Assembly: GCF_963506605.1 (NCBI RefSeq)
Contig: NC_083285.1
Coordinates: 38,254,001-38,318,000, forward strand
Source of the DNA: Zootoca vivipara
Taxonomy: Eukaryota
Direction of reading: 5' to 3'
Length of the DNA stretch: 64,000 nt
A program made the translations under genes and the position numbers. The notes under the pieces were generated by a model. That model had not been told where the DNA came from and made no database searches. It was given only the letters and a program-made list of their open reading frames with translations. Within the stretch, counting starts at the first letter, position 1, and each line of letters starts with the position of its first letter. This document shows, one piece after another, positions 2,625-58,857 of this stretch.

Positions 2625-3222
2625 TGGTAAATTAATGGACTACAGTGGTACCTTGGTTTAAGAACAGTTTAGTTTATTAACTTGGATTAAGAGTGCTGCA
2701 AACCCAGAAGTATGTTTTGGTTTGTGAACTTTGCCTTGGAATAAGAACATGTTTCGGTTCCTGTTGAGTGTGTTCCATTTGTAAATTGAGTCCCCCGCTG
2801 CTATGGGAAAGCACGTCTTGGTTTAAGAATGCTTTGGTTTAAGAATGGACTTCTGGAACGGATTAGCCTAAGTTTGTAAACCAAGGTACCACTGTATACT
2901 GAAATGGCAAAACTAACTGCCAGACTAAGAGACACTAATGATAAGGTGTTTGTAGAAAAGTGGAAACCCTTTTTGGATTCCTAAGTAAATATTTTAATTC
3001 TTTGGTAATACAAGATGGATTTATATCCTGAGCAACAGAAAAACAAGAATTTGATATTCGTAGGTTTAATTTTATGCATTGTTAAAAACAAACGGGCAGT
3101 AACGAGATCTGAGCCACATCTTATCAAGTGATATGGGAAGTTTAAAACCAAACAAAAATGATAACTTGTAATGTACTTAAAATGGATTACAAGAAAAATC
3201 AATAAATATAAAAATATAAAAA
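2625..3222 (+). mobile_element. 3' fragment of an L1-like LINE (ORF2 C-terminus, 3'UTR, A-rich tail) interrupted by a MITE
   Basis: Removing the MITE at 2643-2894 and one TA restores the frame KLMDYTEMAKLTARLRDTNDKVFVEKWKPFLD, which resembles squamate L1 ORF2 C-termini. AATAAA and an A-rich end at ~3201-3222. Confidence 0.6.
2643..2894. mobile_element. Tc1/mariner (pogo/Tigger-like) MITE
   Basis: TIRs CAGTGGTACCTTGGTTTA / TAAACCAAGGTACCACTG; TA on both flanks. Confidence 0.85.
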
Positions 3223-13691: not shown

Positions 13692-14122
13692 ATATATACT
13701 GAAGATGAAATAAAATTTATACTTTATTTGAGCTAATAACTCATCAGCTGCTTAGTGTCAGGTCTTACCCATTCAGAAGAAATCAGAGCATGTTGTTTGG
13801 AGAAGTCTTTTATTTCCGGCAGCTGCATTGGCATTGATATTCCTGTTTTACTTTTATTTCAATACCGCCTCCTGCACAACTTCTTTACACCATGTTTGAA
13901 GCATACTATAAAAACCATAAAAATATTAAGCAAATAGTATAATATATTTGATAACAGAAGATAAAACTATAGAAGCTGTACTGGTCCCTAAAACCAGTTT
14001 TAAAATGTAAAATATTATATCTTAGTACGGTAGTGGTTTTTTTCTTTTCCTTTTAAGAAGTTAAATGTATTGCTTGGAATTTCAAGTCTTACTTGAAATA
14101 CTTTTGAGAATGTTTGCAAATA

Positions 14123-14304
14123 CCGTATATTCCGGCGTATAAGACGCCTGGGCGTATAAGACGACCCCCAACCTTTCCAGTTAAAATATAGAGTCTGAGA
14201 TATACTCACCTTATAAGAAATACGACCCAGCATATAAGACGACCCCCGACTTTTGAGAAGATTTTCCTGGGTTAAAAAGTAGTCTTATACGCAGGAATAT
14301 ACTG
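14123..14304. mobile_element. Tc2/pogo-like MITE (182 bp), copy 1
   Basis: TA|CCGTATATTCCGGCGTATAAGAC ... GTCTTATACGCAGGAATATACTG|TA; identical by eye to 16619-16800. Confidence 0.88.
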
Positions 14305-14567
14305 TATTTAAAATTCCAAGGAGGAAGCCAAATGGGGAACAAGGGGGTTGTGTTAGAGGAGCTCAGATTGCTGGTGTTGGCAACTCTGGATATTCTTAAG
14401 TTCAGGGGCTTGTTGTTTGAAAAATATAATTTGAAACAGCTGGTGAAATTGTCAGCAGCTGTGATCACATGTTAACCTTTAGCATAATTTGTAGTGTTTG
14501 GAAAATATTTCTGTAAATTGCCATTTTTACCTGCAAAATAATAATAATAGATGGCATTTATTCACAG

Positions 14568-15703: not shown

Positions 15704-16618
15704 TATAGTCAGCTAACTACCAACATTGGTCTGTGGTGTTTCTTTCATAAGTTGGCAATGTATATTTCTAGCAGGAGCCAGTTCTTTCACCAGATTTCTT
15801 AACAGAAAGACCTGCAGATGACTGGTTTTGAATATTTCTGATCTAGCATGTAGGAATACTTTGGGCAAGTTCGCAGGATTCTATGGTATGTGGCAGAAAA
15901 AAGCCCCCCCCCCAAAAAAAGTGGTGCTGAAGGCGCCTAATGGCTACTTTTTGGATTTTGACAAATCATTTCAGAAACTATTTTTTCATTACACTAGTAA
16001 TCTAGGTATTTGAAAAATTGTGGCAAGCTTATCTGAGTAAGCCCCATTAAACTTGATGGGGACTTATTTCTGAGCTGATACCTAGAGTTGCACTCTCTAT
16101 TGTGAATTGTATGAGGCCTGGAATGTTCATACATCTTAAGAACACTTAAGGAATAGATCAATGTGAAACTAGAACTAGCCTTTTTCTTTTAATTAAAAAA
16201 TACTGCTACCAATCAAATATTATAAAAATGAGCCTGCTAAGTAGAATAACCTAAAACTAAACTGGATGGCATATTTCTGATTTTTTTTTATTTTCATGAA
16301 AAACATACAAATGCATTTACAAATATACAGAAAAACCCAAGGATCATGGGAATAAATATTTTTCAGTGATCAAAGAAAAAAGAACTTGGTATGTTTTGAA
16401 GCTTGTCATTCAAGGAATTATGAACAATGCTTATTTCTGTATAAATCAGTTTTATAATAAGCCCAACCTGACCTCTGATGGCATTAAAGCCATATTGCCA
16501 GGTTTATGAGACAATTCACAAGAATGGAATAGAATCGATTGCTTCCAGTTGCAAGCTATAGCTGTTTTGGCTTCCATTAATTAAATTCAACCACATTTCT
16601 CAAGTATTTATATATTTA

Positions 16619-16800
16619 CCGTATATTCCGGCGTATAAGACGCCTGGGCGTATAAGACGACCCCCAACCTTTCCAGTTAAAATATAGAGTCTGAGATATA
16701 CTCACCTTATAAGAAATACGACCCAGCATATAAGACGACCCCCGACTTTTGAGAAGATTTTCCTGGGTTAAAAAGTAGTCTTATACGCAGGAATATACTG
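16619..16800. mobile_element. Tc2/pogo-like MITE (182 bp), copy 2
   Basis: Direct repeat of 14123-14304 with its own TA flanks and unrelated neighbouring sequence. Confidence 0.88.
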
Positions 16801-17282
16801 TAAGTAGGAGAAAAAAGACTTCCTTCTAGTTTCTTGCATTTCTTCCTTCATTGTCAATGTTGGGATCAAAATGTATTATTTCTGTGGGTGGTCACCTAGC
16901 CCTGTGCTTTTTTCAAGAGAAAATACTCCATTTCTGTAATTACGTTTCCATCGTTGGTTGTGAGCCTTATTTCCAGGTAAGTGTGGATAGGTACCCAGCC
17001 TTAGTCAAAAGATACTATGGCCATATGATCACACACTGAACCTGCGGTCACAGATAAAGGAGCTGGAGTCCCATAACACATAGAGTTCACCCCATGTTGG
17101 CTATCCCTAATAATTATTTCCATTTTCTGTGATATTTTAAAGAGTAAAGTAGGATAGAACCCATGTGTGGTGCCTAAATGTTTCTCTATAACTTGTTACA
17201 AGTACTAGGGCACTCAGTAGTGGTCATCTGGTGAAAATATAAAGCACCCATATGCTTGCTAACATGTCTGATGCTTAAATAG

Positions 17283-18355: not shown

Positions 18356-18966
18356 GTAAATGAATTAAACATAGATTGTTGAATAGAAAGGGGGGGAGGG
18401 TGCACTTGCATACTGTATATGCATTTGGCTTTTTACTTAGAAATGTCATGCTAACTTTATTCTGAACTATTTTCTCACTTCAGCTTACAGTGTATTCCTG
18501 AGTGATGTTTTGTATATTTGGAGCAAACAGGAATTTAGGGATACCTAAGAACTTAAGATTTCATCACATAACTCTTACTATATCAAATGTGAAATTTTAA
18601 ACAAAATTCATACCTATAACCAAGAATAGATATAAAATAATTATTTTTCTCCTCATCCCCATTGTGTAGCTTTTTATTTCTTTTAAAAGCTTCTTATGTG
18701 CCAATTATTACCTTACTAATAAATAGGAGAATTTGAAATCTCACTACAAATATATGCTCGCTGTTTTTAGAATAGTATTATTCTGTACTGACAGCGTTTT
18801 TCACCAAGAGGAAATGGGAAATAAACATAAAATTACTTATATTCAATAGCCATACAATTCACTTAGATGAAAAATGACAAGAACTCGGGCCAAAACGGAT
18901 AGTTTCAAAAAGGATAATTTCAAAAAGTCTTCACAAAGTTTTATTAAGGATAAATTCCAGTAAACA

Positions 18967-19020
18967 TCAACATCAGGACAAGGCCCTGTTTCGATTATTC
19001 TTCATCAGCTGGAATGTAGA
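18967..19020 (-). ncRNA. Predicted minimal type-I hammerhead ribozyme, copy in the inverted left pLTR
   Basis: Exact reverse complement of 21123-21176. Confidence 0.75.
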
Positions 19021-19517
19021 AGTTAACATAAATCTTAGAATAGTTCTCCTTGTAATGAAAAATCATTCAACTCTCTCGACATAAAGTTTTAACAAATAAA
19101 AAGGACAGAGACTATATACAAATAAACATTACCGATATATCTGTGAGTGACCAACCTAACATCAAACTTAGAATCTGCTTTCTAAATAAGGATTTAAATT
19201 GCTTATAACGTACAACAAGCTTGTCATACTTAAATAATAGATCCTCTTACAAAATATAACAATCCTTATTACAGGAATGCTTGTAGTTTTCTACAAACAG
19301 AGTTATAATACTTATAATAAACGAAGGTAGCTTACCTAGGTTTCTCAGGTCTAAGTATACCATGTATGTTTGCCTTGCTAACTCAAATTGTTTGCAGCAC
19401 TTAAATGATAGAGGAAACGAGGTTACAACAGAATTAAAGAGACAGTATTACATTTGGGCGTACTAAAAGTGTTAAGACAATTTAAAGGCATATGGACATA
19501 ACTAGGTTCAATGTTGT

Positions 19518-20607
19518 TATATTGATGATCTTTTCATGATTCTGGAAGACCGCCACTTGGCCGGGGACTTTGTACAATGGATTAACACCCGAGACCCTCA
19601 TATTCATTTGTCAAGCAACATTCACGATGTACAAGTCAACTTCTTAGACACCACAGTATTTCGAGACAACCATCAACTCCTCAAAGTACGTGTCTTTCAC
19701 AAACCTACAGACCGCAACTCCATGCTTCATGCATCCTCTTTCCATCCACCTCATTTACTTAAGAACCTTCCGTACGGCCAATATTTACGACTAAAAAGAA
19801 ACTTCATTACACCAAGACTTTGACTTCTCTGCAAGGAAGATGACTGCTTCCCTCGTCCAACGTGGATACTCACAGAAAAGACTAAGTGAAGCATTAAGAA
19901 GAACGGAAAAGATAAATAGGCAAGATTTATTCAAATCACGTCCAGACAAGATGAACAATAGTCGCATCACTTCCACTTTACAGTACACATCTCGCACACC
20001 GGAGATTAAAGCCATTATCTACAAACACTGGCATTTACTGTCCAACATTCCTGGGTGCCAAAAACCTCCTCTTTTCGGACTTAAAAAACCACAATCGTTC
20101 AAAGATCTTTTGGTGAAATCAGATATACTCCCAAAAACCACATTGAGAGAAGATTTTCCCTTAGGTCACTTCAAATGTGGAAGATGCAATGTATGTAAAT
20201 ATTCCTTACAGGTAAAGGAGTTCTCTGACCAACACTCCAAGTTTAAGTTCACCATCAAACATTTTAGCAACTGTAACACAAAAAACTGCATATATGCATG
20301 GATCTGCCCTTGCCAAAAAATGTACATTGGAAAATGCTCTAGGCCCATCAAACTTAGAATAAGCGAGCACCGCTCCAGAATCCGAAATCACATTTTGGAG
20401 GCGCCACTAGTTGAACATTATACTCAATACAAACATACCGAGGATGACTTTTCATTCTTTGTAATCTGGACATTGCCACAAACCCGCTTCCAACGAATGA
20501 ACATTGACAGACTCCTTCTCCAACAGGAGTCCAAATTTATTCATCTTTTTAACACTTTACATCCAGGGGGCTTGAATAATAGTCTAGACTTTACTTCATT
20601 CCTATAA
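19518..20607 (+). pseudogene. Penelope-like RT (partial) plus GIY-YIG endonuclease ORF, frameshifted near 19803
   Basis: Track ORFs 19536-19823 and 19840-20607 join as ...RLKRN-x-SLHQDFDFSARKM... with one frameshift. The N-terminal RT is missing. Confidence 0.88.
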
Positions 20608-21122
20608 TCGACTCTGTACTTTGTAACAACATTGAACCTAGTTATGTCCATATGCCTTTAAATTGTCTTAACACTTTTAGTACGCCCAAATGTAATACTG
20701 TCTCTTTAATTCTGTTGTAACCTCGTTTCCTCTATCATTTAAGTGCTGCAAACAATTTGAGTTAGCAAGGCAAACATACATGGTACACTTAGACCTGAGA
20801 AACCTAGGTAAGCTACCTTCGTTTATTATAAGTATTATAACTCTGTTTGTAGAAAACTACAAGCATTCCTGTAATAAGGATTGTTATATTTTGTAAGAGG
20901 ATCTATTATTTAAGTATGACAAGCTTGTTGTACGTTATAAGCAATTTAAATCCTTATTTAGAAAGCAGATTCTAAGTTTGATGTTAGGTTGGTCACTCAC
21001 AGATATATCAGTAATGTTTATTTGTATATAGTCTCTGTCCTTTTTATTTGTTAAAACTTTATGTCGAGAGAGTTGAATGATTTTTCATTACAAGGAGAAC
21101 TATTCTAAGATTTATGTTAACT

Positions 21123-21176
21123 TCTACATTCCAGCTGATGAAGAATAATCGAAACAGGGCCTTGTCCTGATGTTGA
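21123..21176 (+). ncRNA. Predicted minimal type-I hammerhead ribozyme in the Penelope pLTR
   Basis: CAG-CTGATGA(21135-41)-A-GA ATAA TC-GAAA(21151-54)-C AGGGCCTT GTC-CTG. Short helix II, near-palindromic helix III ACAGGGCCTTGT, GUC cleavage triplet 21164-66, helix I CAG/CTG plus ACAT/ATGT. Confidence 0.8.
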
Positions 21177-21585
21177 TGTTTACTGGAATTTATCCTTAAT
21201 AAAACTTTGTGAAGACTTTTTGATATTATCCGTTTTGGCCCGAGTTCTTGTCATTTTTCGTTTAATACAATTCAGTTAGGACAGAAGTGCTGACAGTGCC
21301 TTTTAAGTCTTCCTTTATCAAGGTAGCCTTTATTACATAACACTATACTTCATGTTGAAAGAACAAAAGGATGGTACTGAAGATCCCTGGATACAAAAAT
21401 AGCCAAACAGACCAAAATAACCAAACTGTCATCAACAGCTAAACTCCATGCAAGAATCTTCTTAAAGTTTACTCTGCTTACCAAATTCTTTTACAAATCA
21501 CACAGTGATTTTTTCTTTTTTCTTTCTCTGGTGCAGCTTTCTTGTGCATTTTTTTTAAATTCTCCCTTTGTCTAACCTTTTACAG

Positions 21586-21680
21586 GTCATGGAGAAAACA
21601 TCTACAGAGGAAAGAAGAGCAGACAGGGATATTCTTAAAGAAATGTTCCATTATGAGGCATCAACACCTACAGGAATTAG
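21586..21680 (+). CDS. TMPO: TMPO coding exon 8
   Basis: tacag|VMEKTSTEERRADRDILKEMFHYEASTPTGIS; 95 nt; donor GTATTT. Confidence 0.93.
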
Positions 21681-22969
21681 GTATTTATAGGTGTAATTAT
21701 TGTTTCAAGCATGCAGCGACTGCCTTTTAAGGCTTTGTTAGCACAACTCAGCGCATTTGCCTCTGTTATAATTAACATTTCTAAGAATCCAGTCTTAAAA
21801 GGAGTGTTTTTTCTAATATTAAAAATATGTTTTCCAGTTCTTCCATGCTTATCAGTAGCAACTAGAAAGCTCCAGATCTTTCAAAGCTGTATATCATTTA
21901 AATTGATGTTTTTAGAAGCAAATCATATGTTAAGGTACAGTACTTGTCACTTCCAGAACCACAGACTATTTGTTCTAGGATTTGGCTTATTGTTTGAGAT
22001 ATCCAGATCAAAAGCCATCCTAGGAATAGTCTTTAATTCAGTTGGTAGTATAACCTGCTAAAGTACAGTAAATATACTGAACTTACTGCATCTAAAGCAA
22101 CATATGATTTGCACCATACTGCTAAATCACAGAAAATATTTGCAACAGGACTAGGAGGGCAGCTTTAGTAATAGGTGCACAGTACAGTTAGTTGTGTTTC
22201 ACAGAGCTTTCCACCTTGTCTCCCAAGCAGCTATTATACCCTTAACTTTGTGGAAGATTAAGATCCTCTGTCTCATTATATTCCTTAGGTATAAAAATGG
22301 TAGAACTCCTATGAAGTCACTATATTACTCAACATAGTTCCTGACAAATGTATGTCATAAATTTTAATTCCCAAGGATGGAACTATCTGATTTACACAGC
22401 CAAGTTGGGGACAACACATTGCTCACGTTTACCCAGCTTCCCTTGGTCTTCTGCTTAGTGTTATGAATCTGGGCAAGTTACTGTTGTGTAGGTTTTCTTG
22501 CACAGTAACTTGACCTAAAGTTGTCTGCTTTAGAAATTGCAGGTCTATAAAAATCATGTACTTGAAACAAGGAATATTAAATGCTGAGAACACTTCTTGT
22601 CTGTCTCAAAAGAATGCCTTTTTATTGGGTGCCATGCATGCTCTGAAGATGGACAGGGGGTGAAAGGGGACAGATATTCTATTTTTTCTCCAATGCCAGC
22701 TTGTCAAAAATATGGTATTCAAAGAACAGGTATCTTAACAAACAATATAAATTTGATGGATATAACATTTAGTATCCGTTATGAAGCTTATTCATTTCCC
22801 TTATCATAATCCATAGTTTTGGTGAGGCAAAACACATGTTTGTCTTCCCTAGAGAGCTGTAAAACTTCAGAGCATTAAATGCCTACCTCATCCCCTCCCA
22901 AATGCCTTTTAAAAATGAGGTCTGTGTTAGCCTTAAATAAACATATAATTACTTCTCATTAATTAACAG

Positions 22970-23267
22970 TGCTACCTGCCGCAGACCAATCAAGGGAGCT
23001 GCTGGTCGACCTATAGAGTTCAGTGACTTCCGGCTGGAGGAAACCTATTCATCAAAATATATCCCCAAATATGTTGCCACAGCAGATCTCAACCCAGAGA
23101 AACCAACAATTAAAAAACGTTCCATTCCTATGTGGATAAAAATCCTGCTCTTTGTTCTTATCTCAGTCTTCTTACTTTTGGTCTATCAGTCTATGGAAAC
23201 CAACCAAGGAAATCCATTCTCCAAATTTCTTAGTAGTAATGGTAACCTGGAGGAAAAGACAAATTGA
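22970..23267 (+). CDS. TMPO: TMPO terminal coding exon (transmembrane segment)
   Basis: ATCRRPIKGAAGRP...IPMWIKILLFVLISVFLLLVYQSMETNQGNPF...N*; stop TGA 23265-67. Total CDS 1377 nt. Confidence 0.95.
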
Positions 23268-25491
23268 GTGTTTGTATGGCACACACAACTTGGTCTCCTA
23301 TTTAACTGTAGAGATGTCTTCATCCTTCATCTATTTCAGCGACTGCATACAAATAATAGCGGCATCAGAAAAGTGAAATAAACAAGACAGTATAAGTGGA
23401 CATCACTAACTTTTTTCAGTATTAGGAGATCACTTTGTGCCATTATTAATATTTTTAGATCTCTCTGGAATTTCTTGTAGGATTTATTTTTTTAATGTGG
23501 ATATCATTACATTCATTTGAGATTGTATATTTGTTTTTGCAAGCTCAAGGGCAAAAGTGATAGTAAAATGTGAAGATGTGTTTTAATGTTTTTATTTCAT
23601 ATTAAAAAGATAATGTACTGAAAATTTCTCTACATTGCCTATTGTTTTTAGGGGTGGGAAGTGCTAAGATAATAAAGGGAAATGCATTTTGGATGCATTT
23701 TGTTGAAACTGTGCAGCTAAGTTTAGTCTATTGTAGTTTCCAGCATTTTTTCTGTAGAATACTGTAACATTTTAATAAATAAATGTAAACCTGTTGTATA
23801 CATTTCTGTATCTGTCCTAGTTTTAATTGTAGTAACTCCAATTAACCCTATTCTCTATTTTTAATAATAGTTCTCTACTTTAGTGCTTAATGTCATATCA
23901 CTGATCAAATTGGCAATAGGTGTCCTTAGAGCAAAACATATTTATTAGTAAAATTGTGTGAAAGAAAATTTACATTAAATAAACTGAACTACTTTTTTAC
24001 TGAATAAATACAATGTTAAATCATTAACTGCAGATTTAAAATTCCAGTCTTATTACAAAAGGGTTATGCTCTCAAGCAAAAACCTCTATTTTTATGTAGC
24101 TAAAATGACTTCTATGTGTAGATTTCTCTTTTTTTTCCAACTTAGAATTTTGATTGAACCATCATGGATGTTCATATTCCAAAACATTTCATACTTACAT
24201 TAAAAAGGCATTGTTATGTTACGTATTATGCATCAACCAAGGTTAAAAGTTCTGCTGATGAATGCTACAATTTTAGTCTGCCATAATTTGTTCTCAGATG
24301 CATTTACCAATCAAGTAACTTCAATTAATTTCAAGTGTGGGTTATTACAAATATAATGTGAATGTATCAATTTGCAGCACTTATGGGATCTTGATATTAC
24401 TGCATATTCTATACAAAATGCAATAAACTTATTTTTAACATTCTAGTCTCATCAAAAATTGGTATTAATGCAATCAAACATTAACCTTAACTTTTGATGT
24501 AAAATTATCTTACTACCTCACCTTACTTGATGCTATAGAGAGGCACATCTATGGAGCAATCCATTGATTCCAATAGAAGGGGAAATTAGTATACTGACTC
24601 TATGGTTGTGTTCCCTCCTTCCACCTTTCCAAGGGCATGCTCATTAGACCAAATACAGCTCATTTTTGCTCTCTTCACCTTTTCTCTGACATCTCTGGAG
24701 AGGCATATGAGGGCTGCCTGCCTATGGAAAGGTAACTCTAGCATCCCCTTGCTTCTGGACCATAGAAGTACACTCTTAGGCATACTTATTAGTTCTAATG
24801 TTTTGAAGGGCTTTAGCGTACCTAACTCTGATCAGGCTGCAAGGCTACAGTTAAGAGCACAGGTAGGCTGCTTGCATCTCAGTGACCCGTAAGTTATAAG
24901 TAGCCTAACTGCGCAATACTGTATTCTAAATTAGTTATGAACTAGTGTGCTTATTACGGACATTTTTTCCTTAATTAAATTGTAATGGTTCATAGGGAAA
25001 TGTGGAACATGTCAATGACAACAAGTGTTATTTCTATATTTTACATGAAAAAGATTCCAGATACTTGGCATTTCTAGTTAGAGATAGAAGAAATTGAGCC
25101 TCAAGTGACAGTGATAGATCCAGAAGTGTCCCTAAGTTACGTACCCACTCCTTCAGGGGTAGTATAGCCCCGTCAAAAGCAGGCACCATTGATACAGGCA
25201 ACCAAAGCCGTTTCCAGGCCTAAACATAAATTGAAATGGGTCTAGAAAATTGGTTTCATCCAAGAAAACCTGGATCTAGCCCTTAACCATGTGCTCAGGA
25301 TCTTGCCTTCCTATATCCTATGCCCAACACTTGAACCATTACCTCTGTTTAGGTAGTCCATGTGACTATTTTGGCATCTTTCTCATGATGCTACTAACCT
25401 CTCTGCTTTGCAAAGGAAACTGCATTAAAGTCATTAAAAAAACCCATAGGTTATACTGGAGTAGAATCTATTTCAGGCAGGCTCTCGGAGA

Positions 25492-33287: not shown

Positions 33288-33534
33288 AACATGCTCCCTT
33301 AGATCCATCTTTGTTAGATGTCTCTTGTGCTGAGTTCTGCTTAAAGCTTTGGTTTTGAGTAGTTCCATCCAAGAGGGATCAACAACTTTATGGTTGTACA
33401 GTCAAAGATGCTTGAGTCATTGGCATGTGAGAATAATATACCTTCACTCTGGTCTTTTATGTTCTGATAGCAATGGCTGTAATACAATACATGTCATTTT
33501 CCACTATCAGGATTTGGCTAGACTGTGGACATTT
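33288..33534 (+). ncRNA. SNORA53: H/ACA snoRNA SNORA53
   Basis: Lies in the SLC25A3 intron after exon 5, as in mammals. Starts AACATGCTCCCTTAGATCCA; contains GTCAAAGATGCTTGAGTCATTGGCATGT; H box AGAATA at 33430; ACA at 33529-31, 3 nt from the end; 247 nt. Recognised from memory of the human sequence. Confidence 0.9.

Positions 33535-42382: not shown

Positions 42383-42431
<49 letters not shown>
42383..42431. repeat. (TA)n microsatellite, left flank of BovB copy 1
   Basis: Direct reading; a matching (AT)n tract lies at 45656-45707. Confidence 0.95.
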
Positions 42432-42433
<2 letters not shown>

Positions 42434-42560
42434 CCTTCATGGATCAATGCCTTGTCATGGCGAAGGGGCTTGAATAACTCGGAGAAGCTATGAGCTATGC
42501 CATGCAGGGCCACCCAAGATGGACAGGTCATAGTGGAGAGTTTTGACTAAACGTGATCCA
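42432..42560 (+). ncRNA. Predicted HDV-like self-cleaving ribozyme at the BovB 5' end (copy 1, L3 G>A variant)
   Basis: P1 CCCCTTC/GAAGGGG, P2 TGGATCA/TGATCCA, P3 GCC/GGC, L3 TTGTCAT, P1.1 G-C, P4 base AACTC/GAGTT, J4/2 CTAA. Manual fold only. Confidence 0.65.
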
Positions 42561-45500
42561 CCTGGAGAAGGAACTGGCAAGCCACTCCAGTATCCCTGCC
42601 AAGAAAACTCCATGGACAAAGACAACAGGCATATAAAAGTTATGACGCTGGAAGATGAGCCCCTCAGGTCGGAAGGCGTCCAACATGCTACTGAGGAAGA
42701 GCGGAGGACAAGTACAAGTAGATTCAGAGCTGATGAAGCGACTGGGCCAAAGCCGAAAGGATGCTCAGTTGCGGATATGCCTGGAAGCGAAAGGAAAGTC
42801 CGATGCTGTAAAGAAAAATATTGCATAGGAACCTGGAATGTAAGAACCATGAGTGGAGGTAAGCTGGATGTGGTCAAAAATGAGATGACAAGAATAAATA
42901 TCGACATCCTGGGCATCAGTGAACTAAAATGGAAGGGAATGGGCGAATTCAGTTCGGGTGACTATCATATCTACTACTGTGGGCAAGAATCCTGTAGCAG
43001 AAATGGAGTGGCCCTCATAGTCAACAAAAGAGTGGCAAAAGCTGTAATGGGATGCAATCTCAAAAATGACAGAATGATCTCGATACGAATCCAAGGCAGA
43101 CCTTTTAACATCACAGTAATCCAAGTTTATGCACCAACTACCGGTGCTGAAGAAAGTGAAATTGACCAATTCTATGAAGACCTACAACAACTTCTAGAAA
43201 TGACACCAAAGAAGGATGTTCTTCTCATTACAGGGGATTGGAATGCTAAAGTAGGGAATCAAGAGATAAAAGGAACAACTGGCAAGTTTGGCCTTGGAGT
43301 TCAAAATGAAGCAGGGCAAAGGCTAATAGAGTTCTGTCAAGAGAACAAGCTGGTCATCACAAACACTCTCTTCCAACAACACAAGAGACGACTCTACACA
43401 TGGATATCACCAAATGGGCAGCATCGAAATCAGATTGATTATATTCTCTGCAGCCAAAGATGGAGAAGCTCTATACAGTCAGCAAAAACAAGACCTGGAG
43501 CTGACTGTAACTCAGATCATCAGCTTCTTATAGCAAAATTCCAGCTTAAACTGAAGAAAGTAGGAAAAACCACTGGGCCAGTAAGATACAATCTGAATCA
43601 AATCCCTTATGAATACACAGTGGAAGTGAGGAACAGGTTTAAGGATTTAGATTTGGTGGACAGAGTGCCTGAAGAACTATGGATGGAGGCTCGTAACATT
43701 ATACAGGAGGCAGCAACGAAAACCATCCCAAGGAAAAGGAAATGCAAGAAAGCAAAATGGCTATCCAACAAGGCCTTACAAATAGCGGAGGAGAGGAGGC
43801 AAGCAAAATGCAAGGGAGATAGGGAAAGATACAGGAAACTGAATGCAGATTTCCAAAAAACAGCAAGGAGAGACAAGAGGGTCTTCTTAAATGAGCAATG
43901 CAAAGAAATAGAGGAAAACAATAGAATGGGGAAAACCAGAGATCTGTTCAAGAAAATTGGAGATATGAAAGGAACATTTCGTACAAAGATTACCATAATC
44001 AAGGACAAAAGTGGTAAGGACCTAACAGAAGCAGAAGACATCAAGAAGAGGTGGCAGGAATACACAGAGGAATTATACCAGAAAGATATGGAGGTCTCGT
44101 ACACCCCAGGTAGTGTGGTTGCTGACCTTGAGCCAGACATCTTGGAGAGTGAAGTCAAATGGGCCTTAGAAAGCACTGCTAATAACAAGGCCAGTGGAAG
44201 TGATGATATTCCAGCTGAACTATTTAAAATTTTAAAAGATGATGCTGTTAAGGTGCTACACCCAATATGCCAGCAAGTTTGGAAAACTCAGCAATGGCCA
44301 GAGGATTGGAGAAGATCAGTCTACACCCCAATTCCAAAGAAGGGCAGTGCCAAAGAATGCTCCAACTACCGCACAATTGCGCTCATTTCACACGCTAGCA
44401 AGGTTATGCTTAAAATTCTACAAGGCAGGCTTAGGCAGTATGTGGACCGAGAACTCCCAGAAGTGCAAGCTGGATTTCGAAAGGGCAGAGGAATCAGAGA
44501 CCAAATAGCAAACATGCGCTGGATTATGGAGAAAGCTAGAGAGTTCCAGAAAAACGTCTACTTCTGCTTCATTGACTATGCAAAAGCCTTCGACTGTGTC
44601 GACCACAGCAAACTATGGCAAGTTCTTAAAGAAATGGGAGTGCCTGATCACCTCATCTGTCTCCTGAGAAATCTCTATGTGGGACAAGAAGCTACAGTTA
44701 GAACTGGATATGGAACAACTGATTGGTTCAAAATTGGGAAAGGAGTACGACAAGGTTGTATATTGTCTCCCTGCTTATTTAACTTATATGCAGAATTCAT
44801 CATGCGAAAGGCTGGACTAGATGAATCCCAAGCCGGAATTAAGATTGCCGGAAGAAATATCAACAACCTCAGATATGCAGATGACACAACCTTGATGGCA
44901 GAAAGCGAGGAGGAATTAAAGAACCTTTTAATGAGGGTGAAAGAGGAGAGCGCAAAATATGGTCTGAAGCTCAACATCAAAAAAACCAAGATCATGGCCA
45001 CTGGTCCCATCACCTCCTGGCAAATAGAAGGGGAAGAAATGGAGGCAGTGAGAGATTTTACTTTCTTGGGCTCCTTGATCACTGCAGATGGTGACAGCAG
45101 TCACGAAATTAAAAGACGCCTGCTTCTTGGGAGAAAAGCAATGACAAACCTAGACAGCATCTTAAAAAGCAGAGACATCACTTTGCCGACAAAGGTCCGT
45201 ATAGTTAAAGCTATGGTTTTCCCAGTAGTGATGTATGGAAGTGAGAGCTGGACCATAAAGAAGGCTGATCGTCGAAGAATTGATGCTTTTGAATTATGGT
45301 GCTGGAGGAGACTCTTGAGAGTCCCATGGACTGCTAGAAGATCAAACCTATCCATTCTTAAGGAAATCAGCCCTGAGTGCTCCCTGGAAGGACAGATCGT
45401 GAAGCTGAGGCTCCAATACTTTGGCCACCTCATGAGAAGAGAAGAATCCTTGGAAAAGACCCTGATGTTGGGAAAGATGGAGGGCACTAGGAGAAGGGGA

Positions 45501-45644
45501 CGACAGAGGACGAGATGGTTGGACAGTGTTCTCGAAGCTACGAACATGAGTTTGACCAAACTGCGGGAGGCAGTGCAAGACAGGAGTGCCTGGCGTGCTA
45601 TGGTCCATGGGGTCACGAAGAGTCGGACACGACTAAACGACTAA
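42543..45644 (+). CDS. BovB endonuclease-reverse transcriptase ORF (1033 codons from TTG; first ATG at 42612)
   Basis: APE motifs GTWNVR, ILGISE, GDWN, IDYI, SDH; RT motifs QGCILSP and YADD; no stops. Confidence 0.95.
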   Translation: MTKRDPPGEGTGKPLQYPCQENSMDKDNRHIKVMTLEDEPLRSEGVQHATEEERRTSTSRFRADEATGPKPKGCSVADMPGSERKVRCCKEKYCIGTWNVRTMSGGKLDVVKNEMTRINIDILGISELKWKGMGEFSSGDYHIYYCGQESCSRNGVALIVNKRVAKAVMGCNLKNDRMISIRIQGRPFNITVIQVYAPTTGAEESEIDQFYEDLQQLLEMTPKKDVLLITGDWNAKVGNQEIKGTTGKFGLGVQNEAGQRLIEFCQENKLVITNTLFQQHKRRLYTWISPNGQHRNQIDYILCSQRWRSSIQSAKTRPGADCNSDHQLLIAKFQLKLKKVGKTTGPVRYNLNQIPYEYTVEVRNRFKDLDLVDRVPEELWMEARNIIQEAATKTIPRKRKCKKAKWLSNKALQIAEERRQAKCKGDRERYRKLNADFQKTARRDKRVFLNEQCKEIEENNRMGKTRDLFKKIGDMKGTFRTKITIIKDKSGKDLTEAEDIKKRWQEYTEELYQKDMEVSYTPGSVVADLEPDILESEVKWALESTANNKASGSDDIPAELFKILKDDAVKVLHPICQQVWKTQQWPEDWRRSVYTPIPKKGSAKECSNYRTIALISHASKVMLKILQGRLRQYVDRELPEVQAGFRKGRGIRDQIANMRWIMEKAREFQKNVYFCFIDYAKAFDCVDHSKLWQVLKEMGVPDHLICLLRNLYVGQEATVRTGYGTTDWFKIGKGVRQGCILSPCLFNLYAEFIMRKAGLDESQAGIKIAGRNINNLRYADDTTLMAESEEELKNLLMRVKEESAKYGLKLNIKKTKIMATGPITSWQIEGEEMEAVRDFTFLGSLITADGDSSHEIKRRLLLGRKAMTNLDSILKSRDITLPTKVRIVKAMVFPVVMYGSESWTIKKADRRRIDAFELWCWRRLLRVPWTARRSNLSILKEISPECSLEGQIVKLRLQYFGHLMRREESLEKTLMLGKMEGTRRRGRQRTRWLDSVLEATNMSLTKLREAVQDRSAWRAMVHGVTKSRTRLND

Positions 45645-45655
<11 letters not shown>

Positions 45656-45707
<52 letters not shown>
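45656..45707. repeat. (AT)n microsatellite, right flank of BovB copy 1
   Basis: Direct reading. Confidence 0.95.
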
Positions 45708-54375: not shown

Positions 54376-54892
54376 GTACTGTCAATAGTGTGAAGAAATA
54401 TTTGCATATTTCAAGTCAGCTACTAGAATTGTGTTGTTTTTGTTTCATTTATGTACTCATTGGCTTAATCAAGACTTTTCTAAGGACTCAGCTAGACTGG
54501 TAAAGAGATTTTTATGTGTTGTATGTGCGCTATAACATTGTTTTTCTCTACCTGTTTTCCCTGTTTCAATTTACAACGCTTTAAATTGAAACGCTTCTTA
54601 GATGTGTCTAGATCCAGCCCAAGTCACAATTAGCAATGCTCTATCTTCTAGCATGTGAATTTTAAGTTCCTTACCATTGGTGAATTCTTTGCACGTTTAC
54701 TTGCTTGACAAGAATTCTAGATTGCATGCTTGGTTCATCTAGAGCAGGGTGATCCAACTTCTCAGACCAAGTGGGCTGCAATAGTACTTCTACACAGAAC
54801 CTGCAGGACACACACTGAATTAAATTTCCAGGTCATAAATTGAAGGGTTCGCAATGTAGGTAATATTATTTAATATACACAATTGTTGTTGT

Positions 54893-57800
54893 TTAGTCGT
54901 TTAGTCGTGTCCGACTCTTCGTGACCCCATGGACCATAGCACGCCAGGCACTCCTGTCTTGCACTGCCTCCCGCAGTTTGGTCAAACTCATGTTCGTAGC
55001 TTCGAGAACACTGTCCAACCATCTTGTCCTCTGTCGTCCCCTTCTCCTAGTGCCCTCAATCTTTCCCAACATCAGGGTCTTTTCCAAGGATTCTTCTCTT
55101 CTCATGAGGTGGCCAAAGTATTGGAGCCTCAGCTTCACGATCTGTCCTTCCAGGGAGCACTCAGGGCTGATTTCCTTAAGAATGGATAGGTTTGATCTTC
55201 TAGCAGTCCATGGGACTCTCAAGAGTCTCCTCCAGCACCATAATTCAAAAGCATCAATTCTTCGACGATCAGCCTTCTTTATGGTCCAGCTCTCACTTCC
55301 ATACATCACTACTGGGAAAACCATAGCTTTAACTATACGGACCTTTGTCGGCAAAGTGATGTCTCTGCTTTTTAAGATGCTGTCTAGGTTTGTCATTGCT
55401 TTTCTCCCAAGAAGCAGGCGTCTTTTAATTTCGTGACTGCTGTCACCATCTGCAGTGATCAAGGAGCCCAAGAAAGTAAAATCTCTCACTGCCTCCATTT
55501 CTTCCCCTTCTATTTGCCAGGAGGTGATGGGACCAGTGGCCATGATCTTGGTTTTTTTGATGTTGAGCTTCAGACCATATTTTGCGCTCTCCTCTTTCAC
55601 CCTCATTAAAAGGTTCTTTAATTCCTCCTCGCTTTCTGCCATCAAGGTTGTGTCATCTGCATATCTGAGGTTGTTGATATTTCTTCCGGCAATCTTAATT
55701 CCGGCTTGGGATTCATCTAGTCCAGCCTTTCGCATGATGAATTCTGCATATAAGTTAAATAAGCAGGGAGACAATATACAACCTTGTCGTACTCCTTTCC
55801 CAATTTTGAACCAATCAGTTGTTCCATATCCAGTTCTAACTGTAGCTTCTTGTCCCACATAGAGATTTCTCAGGAGACAGATGAGGTGATCAGGCACTCC
55901 CATTTCTTTAAGAACTTGCCATAGTTTGCTGTGGTCGACACAGTCAAAGGCTTTTGCATAGTCAATGAAGCAGAAGTAGACGTTTTTCTGGAACTCTCTA
56001 GCTTTCTCCATAATCCAGCGCATGTTTGCTATTTGGTCTCTGGTTCCTCTGCCCTTTCGAAATCCAGCTTGCACTTCTGGGAGTTCTCGGTCCACATACT
56101 GCCTAAGCCTGCCTTGTAGAATTTTAAGCATAACCTTGCTAGCGTGTGAAATGAGCGCAATTGTGCGGTAGTTAGAGCATTCTTTGGCACTGCCCTTCTT
56201 TGGAATTGGGATGTAGACTGATCTTTTCCAATCCTCTGGCCATTGCTGAGTTTTCCAAACTTGCTGGCATATTGGGTGTAGCACCTTAACAGCATCATCT
56301 TTTAAAATTTTAAATAGTTCAGCTGGAATATCATCACTTCCACTGGCCTTGTTATTAGCAATGCTTTCTAAGGCCCATTTGACTTCACTCTCCAAGATGT
56401 CTGGCTCAAGGTCAGCAACCACACTACCTGGGGTGTATGAGACCTCCATATCTTTCTGGTATAATTCCTCTGTGTATTCTTGCCACCTCTTCTTGATGTC
56501 TTCTGCTTCTGTTAGGTCCTTACCACTTTTGTCCTTGATTATGGTAATCTTTGTACGAAATGTTCCTTTCATATCACCAATTTTCTTGAACAGATCTCTG
56601 GTTTTCCCCATTCTATTGTTTTCCTCTATTTCTTTGCATTGCTCATTTAAGAAGACCCTCTTGTCTCTCCTTGCTGTTTTTTGGAAATCTGCATTCAGTT
56701 TCCTGTATCTTTCCCTATCTCCCTTGCATTTTGCTTGCCTCCTCTCCTCCGCTATTTGTAAGGCCTCGTTGGACAGCCATTTTGCTTTCTTGCATTTCCT
56801 TTTCCTTGGGATGGTTTTCATTGCTGCCTCCTGTATAATGTTACGAGCCTCCATCCATAGTTCTTCAGGCACTCTGTCCACCAAATCTAAATCCTTAAAC
56901 CTGTTCCTCACTTCCACTGTGTATTCATAAGGGATTTGATTCAGATTGTATCTTACTGGCCCAGTGGTTTTTCCTACTTTCTTCAGTTTAAGCTGGAATT
57001 TTGCTATAAGAAGCTGATGATCTGAGTTACAATCAGCTCCAGGTCTTGTTTTTGCTGACTGTATAGAGCTTCTCCATCTTTGGCTGCAGAGAATATAATC
57101 AATCTGATTTCGATGCTGCCCATTTGGTGATATCCATGTGTAGAGTCGTCTCTTGTGTTGTTGGAAGAGAGTGTTTGTGATGACCAGCTTGTTCTCTTGA
57201 CAGAACTCTATTAGCCTTTGCCCTGCTTCATTTTGAACTCCAAGGCCAAACTTGCCAGTTGTTCCTTTTATCTCTTGATTCCCTACTTTAGCATTCCAAT
57301 CCCCTGTAATGAGAAGAACATCCTTCTTTGGTGTCATTTCTAGAAGTTGTTGTAGGTCTTCATAGAATTGGTCAATTTCACTTTCTTCAGCACCAGTAGT
57401 TGGTGCATAAACTTGGATTACTGTGATGTTAAAAGGTCTGCCTTGGATTCGTATCGAGATCATTCTGTCATTTTTGAGATTGCATCCCATTACAGCTTTT
57501 GCCACTCTTTTGTTGACTATGAGGGCCACTCCATTTCTGCTACAGGATTCTTGCCCACAGTAGTAGATATGATAGTCACCCGAACTGAATTCGCCCATTC
57601 CCTTCCATTTTAGTTCACTGATGCCCAGGATGTCGATATTTATTCTTGTCATCTCATTTTTGACCACATCCAGCTTACCTCTATTCATGGTTCTTACATT
57701 CCAGGTTCCTATGCAATATTTTTCTTTACAGCATCGGACTTTCCTTTCGCTTCCAGGCATATCCGCAACTGAGCGTCCTTTCGGCTTTGGCCCAGCCGCT

Positions 57801-57994
57801 TCATCAGCTCTGAATCTACTTGTACTTATCCTCCGCTCTTCCTCAGTAGCATGTTGGACGCCTTCCGACCTGAGGGGCTCATCTTCCAGCGTCATAACTT
57901 TTATATGCCTGTTGTCTTTGTCCATGGAGTTTTCTTGGCAGGGATACTGGAGTGGCTTGCCAGTTCCTTCTCCAGGTGGATCACGTTTAGTCAA
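54893..57994 (-). CDS. BovB endonuclease-reverse transcriptase ORF, copy 2
   Basis: 1033 codons; about 12 aa differences from copy 1 by eye; all APE and RT motifs intact. Confidence 0.95.
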   Translation of the reverse strand: MTKRDPPGEGTGKPLQYPCQENSMDKDNRHIKVMTLEDEPLRSEGVQHATEEERRISTSRFRADEAAGPKPKGRSVADMPGSERKVRCCKEKYCIGTWNVRTMNRGKLDVVKNEMTRINIDILGISELKWKGMGEFSSGDYHIYYCGQESCSRNGVALIVNKRVAKAVMGCNLKNDRMISIRIQGRPFNITVIQVYAPTTGAEESEIDQFYEDLQQLLEMTPKKDVLLITGDWNAKVGNQEIKGTTGKFGLGVQNEAGQRLIEFCQENKLVITNTLFQQHKRRLYTWISPNGQHRNQIDYILCSQRWRSSIQSAKTRPGADCNSDHQLLIAKFQLKLKKVGKTTGPVRYNLNQIPYEYTVEVRNRFKDLDLVDRVPEELWMEARNIIQEAAMKTIPRKRKCKKAKWLSNEALQIAEERRQAKCKGDRERYRKLNADFQKTARRDKRVFLNEQCKEIEENNRMGKTRDLFKKIGDMKGTFRTKITIIKDKSGKDLTEAEDIKKRWQEYTEELYQKDMEVSYTPGSVVADLEPDILESEVKWALESIANNKASGSDDIPAELFKILKDDAVKVLHPICQQVWKTQQWPEDWKRSVYIPIPKKGSAKECSNYRTIALISHASKVMLKILQGRLRQYVDRELPEVQAGFRKGRGTRDQIANMRWIMEKAREFQKNVYFCFIDYAKAFDCVDHSKLWQVLKEMGVPDHLICLLRNLYVGQEATVRTGYGTTDWFKIGKGVRQGCILSPCLFNLYAEFIMRKAGLDESQAGIKIAGRNINNLRYADDTTLMAESEEELKNLLMRVKEESAKYGLKLNIKKTKIMATGPITSWQIEGEEMEAVRDFTFLGSLITADGDSSHEIKRRLLLGRKAMTNLDSILKSRDITLPTKVRIVKAMVFPVVMYGSESWTIKKADRRRIDAFELWCWRRLLRVPWTARRSNLSILKEISPECSLEGQIVKLRLQYFGHLMRREESLEKTLMLGKIEGTRRRGRQRTRWLDSVLEATNMSLTKLREAVQDRSAWRAMVHGVTKSRTRLND

Positions 57995-58105
57995 AACTCT
58001 CCACTATGACCTGTCCATCTTGGGTGGCCCTGCATGGCATAGCTCATAGCTTCTCTGAGTTATTCAAGCCCCTTCGCCACGACAAGGCATTGATCCATGA
58101 AGGGG
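57977..58105 (-). ncRNA. Predicted HDV-like self-cleaving ribozyme at the BovB 5' end (copy 2, L3 intact)
   Basis: Same fold as 42432-42560 but with L3 = TTGTCGT, retaining the U20/G25-equivalent pair. Confidence 0.7.
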
Positions 58106-58857
58106 AATATACACAATTAACATATTTAATTGAAAATGGAAGAGAATGGTCATTAGCGCTAGCAATGCTCCTTTAGTACTTTAGTACAAAAAAGGCTGCC
58201 CTGCAGGCTTTGTGTTGAACCACTCTGACCTAAAGCATCAGCCAGATTTGTTAGCTGTCATTAATAGAACTCCTTACTCCCATTTGATTCTAGTTGTAAC
58301 GAGCAATATGTTGAACATGTGTCCAAAAGACTTACAGAATTGATTCAATATTACTAGTTCTAGACTATGGCTTCTCCACAGTCACCAGCTATCTCTGGCT
58401 GATCTCAACTCATCTAGATTCAGAATTTAGCAGTATTTAGCTTTTTCTGTTGTGTTTTTTGGAACATACCTAGCTGTTTTTTGGAAAACAACTATCTTTT
58501 AACAAATGTGTTCAAATGAGGTAATGAATACAATATTACCAAGCCCTTTAACTCTGCAAATGTTTGTTAAATGTAAAATACATAGAAAATGCTTCTCACT
58601 AACTGTAGAACTGCTATGTTTTAGTCCAGTCAAGCTCTTGAGAGTTGTCCCAGACAATAATTCTTTCTTCTGGGCAATTTTAGTTGTTGTGGATATAAAG
58701 CACATGGGACTCAATTTTTTTGTTTAGAATAAATATTTAAAAGGGAGCATGTTTGAAAAATGAAATGAAATGAAAAGTCTATTGGTTCTTAACATATTAA
58801 GGAATCTCCAAAGCAGGTGTACAGTGCCTCCAAGCTTGACATGTTTTTTTCTAATAG

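Follow-up and report, generated by a model that had tools for sequence, protein, structure and literature searches.

We hold with good confidence that the motif at 21123-21176 of the window (the whole stretch of 64,000 nucleotides of Zootoca vivipara DNA that was analysed) is a standard minimal hammerhead of a Penelope element, likely silent in the transcript of its host gene TMPO, and that its helix I shares sequence with the 3' splice site of an intron belonging to the element itself, so that splicing likely weakens the ribozyme. The motif itself, its location in the pseudo-LTR, and the logic of its action as a dimer were already known for this class of elements (PMC4209133; PMC6765202).

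The motif at 21123-21176 is a minimal type-I hammerhead

The motif lies on the forward strand and comprises the 5' strand of helix I (21126-21134), the core CTGATGA (21135-21141), and an extra A (21142). The remaining part (21143-21173) consists of the pair G21143-C21150, the GAAA segment (21151-21154), the helix III palindrome (21154-21165), C17 (21166), and the 3' strand of helix I (21167-21173). The conserved hammerhead positions C3 to A9, G12 to A14, A15.1/U16.1, and the cleavable C17 are all present. A21142 is the unpaired base between positions 9 and 10.1, and G21143-C21150 corresponds to the pair G10.1-C11.1. Helix II of the window copy additionally contains the pair A21144-T21149, with the loop ATAA. 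The near-palindrome of helix III gives a 12-bp intermolecular duplex with a folding energy of -18.9 kcal/mol.

A first-pass annotation, made from the letters of the window, had described an intact core with an extra A after A9, a predicted cut after C21166, and a self-complementary helix III. The sequence and coordinates of the core were right, hammerhead numbering places C17 at C21166, and the computed 12-bp duplex bears out the third claim. The annotation had also reported an exact antisense copy at 18967-19020, and this segment, which lies on the reverse strand and is antisense in the TMPO pre-mRNA, is indeed the exact reverse complement of 21123-21176. The covariance search that it proposed failed: the Rfam hammerhead models gave no match at the gathering score or at E values up to 10. 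The canonical type-I model has a 4-bp helix II, a 6-bp helix I, and loop contacts, versus a helix II of one to two pairs here, and we took the miss as insensitivity of the model to minimal forms, not as a refutation. Together with the family data reported below, the sequence confirmed that 21123-21176 is a real minimal type-I hammerhead motif, of a kind already known and with cleavage as a prediction.

In the genome, the 32-nt core has 51 exact copies, compared to none for a reversed control, and a general hammerhead pattern has 424 matches, compared to 4 for the control. A family sample of 100 of the 424 matches (contigs C1 to part of C3) was recovered with flanking sequences. The search pattern fixes the extra base and the G10.1-C11.1 pair, and their invariance in the family is therefore not independent. 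Twenty-five loop II types were found among the 100 sampled copies. The second helix II pair was A-T in 52 of these copies and paired in 12 of 19 intron-retaining variants. Since this pair is variable, the conserved helix II is limited to the single G10.1-C11.1 pair. The same counts ruled out a two-pair helix II as a family feature; the 2-bp helix II of the first-pass annotation thus stands for the window copy, which has both pairs, but not for the family. Forms with a one-pair helix II were reportedly described by Lunse et al. in 2017.

The three bases after the cut site were CTG in 93 of the 100 sampled copies. In the helix III palindrome, 96.5% of the cells were paired across 19 variants. 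Compensatory changes were sought in the 19 intron-retaining variants and no pair had changed on both sides, most paired columns never varying. The 54-mer was better conserved than both flanks in 13/13 subfamily representatives, a comparison that is partly built in, as the distant representatives were picked by the core pattern and some of the flank alignments are unreliable. Loss of the core among family copies had been put forward as an observation that would speak against the ribozyme; the core was intact in all 30 loci picked by BLAST, and a change at G12 was present in 2 of 30 matches picked by the splice junction described below. The anatomy of the element and the dispersed family likewise agree with the earlier description of a Penelope-type minimal hammerhead in a pseudo-LTR. 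Loci L006 to L014 (C18 5.25-6.62 Mb and C19 near 39.54 Mb) derive from one fold-back insertion of this family, amplified about 10 times with its flanks. Long open frames of about 748 and 925-929 aa, some of them arranged in tandem, are numerous in other Penelope-like families, which were probably active recently.

A Penelope insertion in an intron of TMPO

A perfect target-site duplication of 10 bp (forward strand; left copy 18852-18861, right copy 21265-21274) brackets 2403 bp. The inserted sequence consists of an inverted, 5'-truncated arm containing pseudo-LTR and tail (18862-19519, reverse strand relative to the sense arm) and of a sense body running from 19516 to 21264. The body begins with a 5'-truncated remnant of the reading frame (19516-20607, forward strand), which overlaps the inverted arm by 4 nt (19516-19519) and contains the end of the reverse transcriptase (RT; YIDD), a cysteine linker (CxxCxxC), and a GIY-YIG match (E 5e-4, under the curated Pfam cut-off). 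A frameshift near 19803 was seen against a sister copy. The linker reads CGRCNVC in the frame 19795-20604 and is of the CX2-5CxxC type. Four short pieces gave no match in Pfam at E 0.01; the sister copy L114 has a 675-aa frame with an RVT_1 domain (E 4.8e-8). Downstream from the hammerhead, the rest of the pseudo-LTR and the tail (21177-21264, forward strand) form the common 3' end of the family copies. As judged from its sequence, the insertion is dead, being a copy unable to make protein. Over 614 nt, the two arms show 2 substitutions, and they are further distinguished by a 15-nt indel and by a few changes in the tail; the two substitutions suggest, by divergence and not by a clock, that the insertion is young. 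A linker of the CX2-5CxxC type that separates RT from EN is characteristic of Neptune/Nematis elements (PMC8557442). We prefer an assignment to Neptune over Nematis, based on vertebrate distribution (10.64898/2026.07.22.740005).

TMPO is located on the forward strand, its first exon matching the Pfam Thymopoietin family (E 1.3e-28). The intron harboring the insertion (18356-21585) was delimited by sequence and RNA joints and has 3230 nt, or about 817 nt without the insertion. It is followed by a short exon of 95 nt (21586-21680), located between the insertion and the last exon and joined in RNA to 22970, and by the coding part of the last exon (22970-23267; identified from translation and RNA depth), which encodes a hydrophobic segment that we take, from the structure of LAP2-beta, to be the transmembrane segment. 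The hammerhead is in sense in the TMPO intron, two exons above the stop. The first-pass annotation was correct in placing it in sense in an intron upstream from the transmembrane exon, except that the 95-nt exon intervenes.

Reads from three raw RNA runs of the same species and a single study (about 6% of each run) were aligned to 19520-23400, along with one DNA contig set of another individual. Loose-end reads connecting the upstream TMPO exon with 21586 numbered 33, 18, and 9 in the three runs, and the short exon was joined to 22970 in 204, 113, and 19 reads. No cluster of read begins or ends at 21166/21167 was present among the ends listed for the three runs (about 6% each), a weak test given an intron depth of a few reads and the fact that reads of the poly(A) type would miss most cut ends. 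A 3-nt in-frame insertion at 21598, in the short TMPO exon, was found in 42/42, 26/26, and 16/19 reads of the three runs and was present neither in the window nor in the DNA contig set. Thus, the animals used for RNA carry another haplotype of the short exon and may lack the Penelope insertion. Normal TMPO splicing in these reads gives weak support to tolerance of the insertion. A contig of the other individual spans the right junction of the insertion with 28 identical element bases, which is below the 31-base threshold. Reads covering the hammerhead (21080-21209) in two runs were mostly of other subfamilies and mostly of opposite polarity to the TMPO exons and to the element. The opposite-polarity reads carry upstream sequence of the spliced type and are likely to result from read-through of spliced stubs.

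The insertion is probably a recent passenger without importance for TMPO. Host-adopted intronic ribozymes of the CPEB3 type are old, confined to a single locus, conserved between species, and active as monomers. The TMPO hammerhead is not of this type since 2 substitutions in 614 nt separate its arms, its target duplication is perfect, it has 424 relatives, and its monomer is predicted to be inactive.

The element's intron ends in the 5' strand of helix I

The sequence preceding the core was of two kinds in the family, namely a pyrimidine tract followed by CAG, as in the window, or a match ending at 20807. In the window, 20807 is the end of exon 1 of the element leader (20762-20807, forward strand), the start of which is the likely transcription start, and directly precedes GTAAGC. 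The 327 nt between this position and the core (20808-21134, forward strand; GTAAG...TTCCAG) are the element's own intron, of the spliceosomal type, the last bases of which are the 5' strand of helix I. The exact junction 20807|21135 had 58 matches in the genome (none for the control), and the acceptor form had 52, of which 21 on C18/C19 originated from one amplified insertion (control 0). GTAAG followed the end of exon 1 in 19 of 37 fuzzy matches, with three exon-1 types, and the other 18 were loose matches elsewhere.

Based on short motifs, the 100 sampled copies were classified as spliced, i.e. exon-joined (70 copies), acceptor-type (27 copies), or other (3 copies). Five of 18 classes, among them the four largest, had the same downstream haplotypes in spliced and unspliced copies, and three exon-1 variants also occurred in both forms, which points to repeated splicing. 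In the family of the window, all 33 spliced copies measured are short 5'-leader stubs (of about 175 nt, single or head-to-head) that do not extend into the reading frame. Their starts lie at 20734-20789, with 31 in the range 20762-20789, a cluster that marks the likely transcription start. The starts were sought in an upstream view of 600 nt, and the very shortest stubs escape the junction pattern. The starts of 32 intron-retaining copies were located anywhere from inside the reading frame to 21110. The spliced junction was also found in a DNA contig of another individual. In RNA, the joint 20807-21135 was not among the joints listed for the three runs (about 6% each), and 2 reads contained a related form; such junction reads may also stem from transcription of spliced genomic copies. 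In the literature searched, we found no account of abundant spliced genomic copies, a matter on which the reptile alignments in the supplement of PMC4209133 may bear.

The two forms differ in helix I. Pair 2 was A-T in 27/27 acceptor copies versus Watson-Crick in 19/70 spliced copies, and pair 3 was C-G in 26/27 acceptor copies versus Watson-Crick in 0/70 spliced copies. The median energy of helix I was -3.7 kcal/mol for unspliced copies (16/17 distinct) and +0.8 kcal/mol for spliced copies (37/40); a rank test (P 9e-8) was set aside because the copies are related. For the window copy, the corresponding values were -3.3 and +0.5 kcal/mol, and the spliced form would keep three weak pairs. Helix I was not clearly weaker after splicing in two subfamilies, with loops ATAA-A and ATAG-T. 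Since the acceptor CAG belongs to the 5' strand of helix I, splicing is likely to weaken the hammerhead in the message of the element.

The lone hammerhead is predicted to be silent in TMPO

Folding predicted a competing hairpin of six pairs (21155-21169, forward strand; 21155-21160 with 21164-21169) covering the cut site and the 3' strand of helix I. The probabilities of its pairs were 0.98-1.0 in the 54-mer and 0.94 in a 350-nt context, and the hairpin had a probability of at least 0.69 in 15 of 17 variants. The prediction for a lone monomer is therefore that this hairpin hides the cut site, the active form being at +1.1 kcal/mol versus -10.4 kcal/mol for the minimum free energy fold. For the dimer, the active two-copy fold was at -18.1 versus a minimum of -31.1 kcal/mol. 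The limitation of these energies is that they leave out tertiary contacts and proteins. As inactive folds are favoured even for dimers, the energy model can neither tell when any copy is active nor, alone, prove silence. The 64-kb window contains no second sense hammerhead of the same type, in agreement with the monomeric state claimed by the first-pass annotation. Published data are available for related motifs. A single minimal hammerhead of S. mansoni did not cleave and dimers cleaved little (PMC4209133). An anole Poseidon element has a hammerhead that was cut only when the element's protein was present, and RNA-seq showed no read ends at the cut position (PMC11167929). In the same element, mutations of the core abolished cleavage and a double mutant partly restored it, and hammerhead mutants had no effect on insertion in vitro (PMC11167929). 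Silence in TMPO would thus be ensured by three redundant blocks, namely the lack of a sense partner, the occlusion of the cut site by the monomer's own hairpin, and the duplex with the upstream arm.

The last of these blocks was central to the first-pass annotation, according to which the hammerhead would cut TMPO pre-mRNA if the upstream arm did not prevent it, the insertion having survived for this reason. Pairing itself is physically plausible, and this part of the claim stands: the arms are 99% complementary over 614 nt, with a duplex energy of about -1100 kcal/mol, and 511 nt of the upstream arm are transcribed, and can zip, before the core is made. TMPO also splices normally in the reads seen. 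As a reason for tolerance, the arm fared less well. Among 165 distinct matches, neighbouring hammerhead pairs within 3 kb were head-to-head in 28 of 29 cases, tandem in one, and convergent in none (head-to-head in 19/20 if the amplified C18/C19 copies were omitted), and head-to-head inverted ends are a standard shape of Penelope insertions (PMC8557442; PMC3846280). With this generic geometry, every transcript that reads through such an insertion, in whichever direction, contains the antisense copy ahead of the sense copy. A full antisense partner was located nearby for 16 of the 100 sampled copies, and the other 84 persist without one within about 0.8-1.5 kb on each side, a count made irrespective of gene context. 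Moreover, the monomer is predicted to self-occlude, and monomers of this class are reported to be inactive or protein-dependent (PMC4209133; PMC11167929). We therefore consider survival owing to the arm to be improbable, and we infer that the inverted arm is a by-product of the way these elements insert, not a host device, with nothing specific to TMPO. Harm to TMPO could also come from the splice site if the acceptor at 21134 captured a TMPO donor and added a stop-containing cryptic exon before the transmembrane exon. The acceptor looks functional and is in sense inside the TMPO intron, the three frames all stop within 11 codons from 21135, and donor-like sites are present at 21281, 21323, and 21465. 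Against this, the loose ends listed before 21133/21134 were exon-1 ends of other Penelope subfamilies, none being a TMPO exon, whereas those listed before 21586 were the TMPO exon, and the arm duplex would hide the acceptor. Such capture is accordingly a very unlikely event in our assessment.

The leader intron as a possible switch and template sorter

A mechanism accounting for both kinds of copies can be proposed. Transcription of the element would start in the pseudo-LTR, about 45 nt above the donor, and the leader intron would be spliced, a full helix I being present only in unspliced RNA. Tail-primed reverse transcription, as shown in vitro for an anole element (PMC11167929), would run to the 5' end of the spliced leader and generate short stubs, single or head-to-head. 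The same process on an unspliced pseudo-LTR would continue into the reading frame and generate long intron-retaining copies, such as that of TMPO. Priming from both cut DNA ends would account for the head-to-head arms and for the target duplication. On these grounds, we tentatively propose that the leader intron of vertebrate Neptune elements may act both as a ribozyme switch and as a template sorter: the acceptor would supply helix I, the spliced message would be protected, the spliced leader would give rise to most copies, and only unspliced pseudo-LTRs would give rise to long ones. We regard this proposal as possible, with a probability somewhat short of even.

Footprints of cleavage were sought in the genomic copies with patterns that miss copies whose neighbouring base happens to be C. 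None of the 5 candidates with another base before 21167 started at the cut site, and none of 3 broke one base further. Nine copies had another base after C17, comprising 7 point changes, 1 microhomology deletion, and 1 tandem junction; L177, which had been considered as a break at C17, was rejected as a deletion across a 5-nt repeat. Two short inverted arms (L017 and L091) start 4-5 nt below the cut site, within a broad spread. Spliced as well as unspliced templates were copied across this position without having been cut. The tandem junction is that of L151 (800-905; C9 near 11347000), the only tandem sense pair, in which a spliced copy breaks off directly behind C17 and continues into the exon-1 start of a second copy; the two are 72 nt apart, and a third, inverted copy is adjacent. 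L151 could result from a template switch on cleaved RNA or from slippage, and is a candidate natural dimer. It is a single case noticed post hoc; if real, its sequence would argue against a strict off-switch and fit cleavage of spliced RNA.

The same observations can be read in favour of an inert motif, in which case the overlap between helix I and the acceptor would be a packing constraint, cleavage would occur rarely or never in vivo, the spliced stubs would be inert by-products, and the motif may serve as a binding site for the element's protein. The copying of both template forms uncut, the absence of starts at the cut site (0/5), the preponderance of point changes after C17 (7/9), the lack of covariation in 19 variants, and the normal insertion of hammerhead mutants in vitro (PMC11167929) are consistent with such a reading. 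However, the 3' CTG, which pairs with the CAG of the acceptor, is conserved in 93 of 100 copies and across 25 loop types, though splicing does not need it, the catalytic positions are also kept, and in the anole element core mutants abolished cleavage and a double mutant regained part of it (PMC11167929). We therefore judge inertness somewhat unlikely. It might be argued, alternatively, that the intron-less copies descend from separate non-autonomous masters, similar to SINEs or retrozymes, and not from repeated splicing: they are short, non-coding, and numerous, and Penelope pseudo-LTRs have been proposed as the origin of animal retrozymes (10.64898/2026.07.22.740005). Against such masters, downstream haplotypes and three exon-1 variants are shared by both forms, the precise GT-AG loss recurs in several subfamilies, the 5' ends vary copy by copy, and only 1 of 29 neighbouring pairs is in tandem. 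Separate masters are thus a distinctly poor candidate.

Relation to known Penelope elements

The minimal hammerheads of metazoan Penelope-like elements resemble the motif in having a type-I core, a base between positions 9 and 10.1, a G10.1-C11.1 pair, and a palindromic helix III, in being located in the pseudo-LTR, and in occurring as thousands of dispersed copies, including copies on opposite strands, with Neptune and reptiles among their sources (PMC4209133). They differ in that helix II has 6-8 bp in the examples from Schistosoma and Drosophila, compared to one conserved pair here (PMC4209133). The overlap between helix I and the end of an intron is not first seen here, as it was described for Penelope of D. 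virilis (PMC4209133). The pseudo-LTR of the latter element likewise contains, shortly after the start site, a leader intron (PMC4209133; PMC2377424), the 3' end of which supplies helix I, so that spliced and unspliced hammerheads differ (PMC4209133). The D. virilis intron has 75 nt, compared to 327 nt in the vertebrate Neptune-type element analysed here, and the fly papers stress intron retention, whereas most genomic copies here are spliced (PMC4209133; PMC2377424). The Poseidon element PAc of Anolis is likewise a reptile Penelope-like element with reverse transcription starting internally in the tail, a hammerhead in the pseudo-LTR, and an uncleaved RNA template (PMC11167929). PAc belongs to another clade, Poseidon, and its reading frame starts inside the hammerhead, whereas the same ATG opens only 10 codons here; the main text of that report mentions no intron (PMC11167929).

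Pen2a_Av provides a parallel for the shape of the insertion, with a head-to-head inverted 5'-truncated copy, a 9-10-bp target duplication, and a short overlap at the junction (PMC3846280; PMC8557442). The head-to-head shape and intron retention were explained by a possible antisense template, the choice between antisense and unspliced sense RNA being left open (PMC3846280). In contrast to Pen2a_Av, the head-to-head pairs of spliced leaders found here (such as L055, L074, and L152) need a sense, spliced template; such stubs indicate that sense RNA is copied. The role of the hammerheads in Penelope-like elements and the reason for intron retention were both called unknown (PMC8557442), and the overlap with the splice site bears on why Penelope elements keep introns. 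If the leader intron does act as switch and sorter, intron retention in long copies would be explained without an antisense template, and fold-back insertions would mask themselves whatever host transcript contained them. Several subfamilies of this one genome contain the same hammerhead in matched spliced and unspliced versions, which provide a clean set for comparison.

Other features of the window

Two LINE copies (42426-45677, forward strand, and 54863-58111, reverse strand), with endonuclease and RT domains, are identical at 3221 of 3249 aligned bases. Each contains an open frame of 1036 aa, and the two copies face each other about 9 kb apart. We take them to be RTE/BovB-like and to flank the IKBIP/APAF1 promoter region. 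Two repeats of 186 bp in TMPO introns (14121-14306 and 16617-16802) are 100% identical and are probably copies of a young short mobile element. The snoRNA SNORA53 was detected at 33288-33533 (Rfam, 179.5 bits), in an intron of what is presumably SLC25A3.
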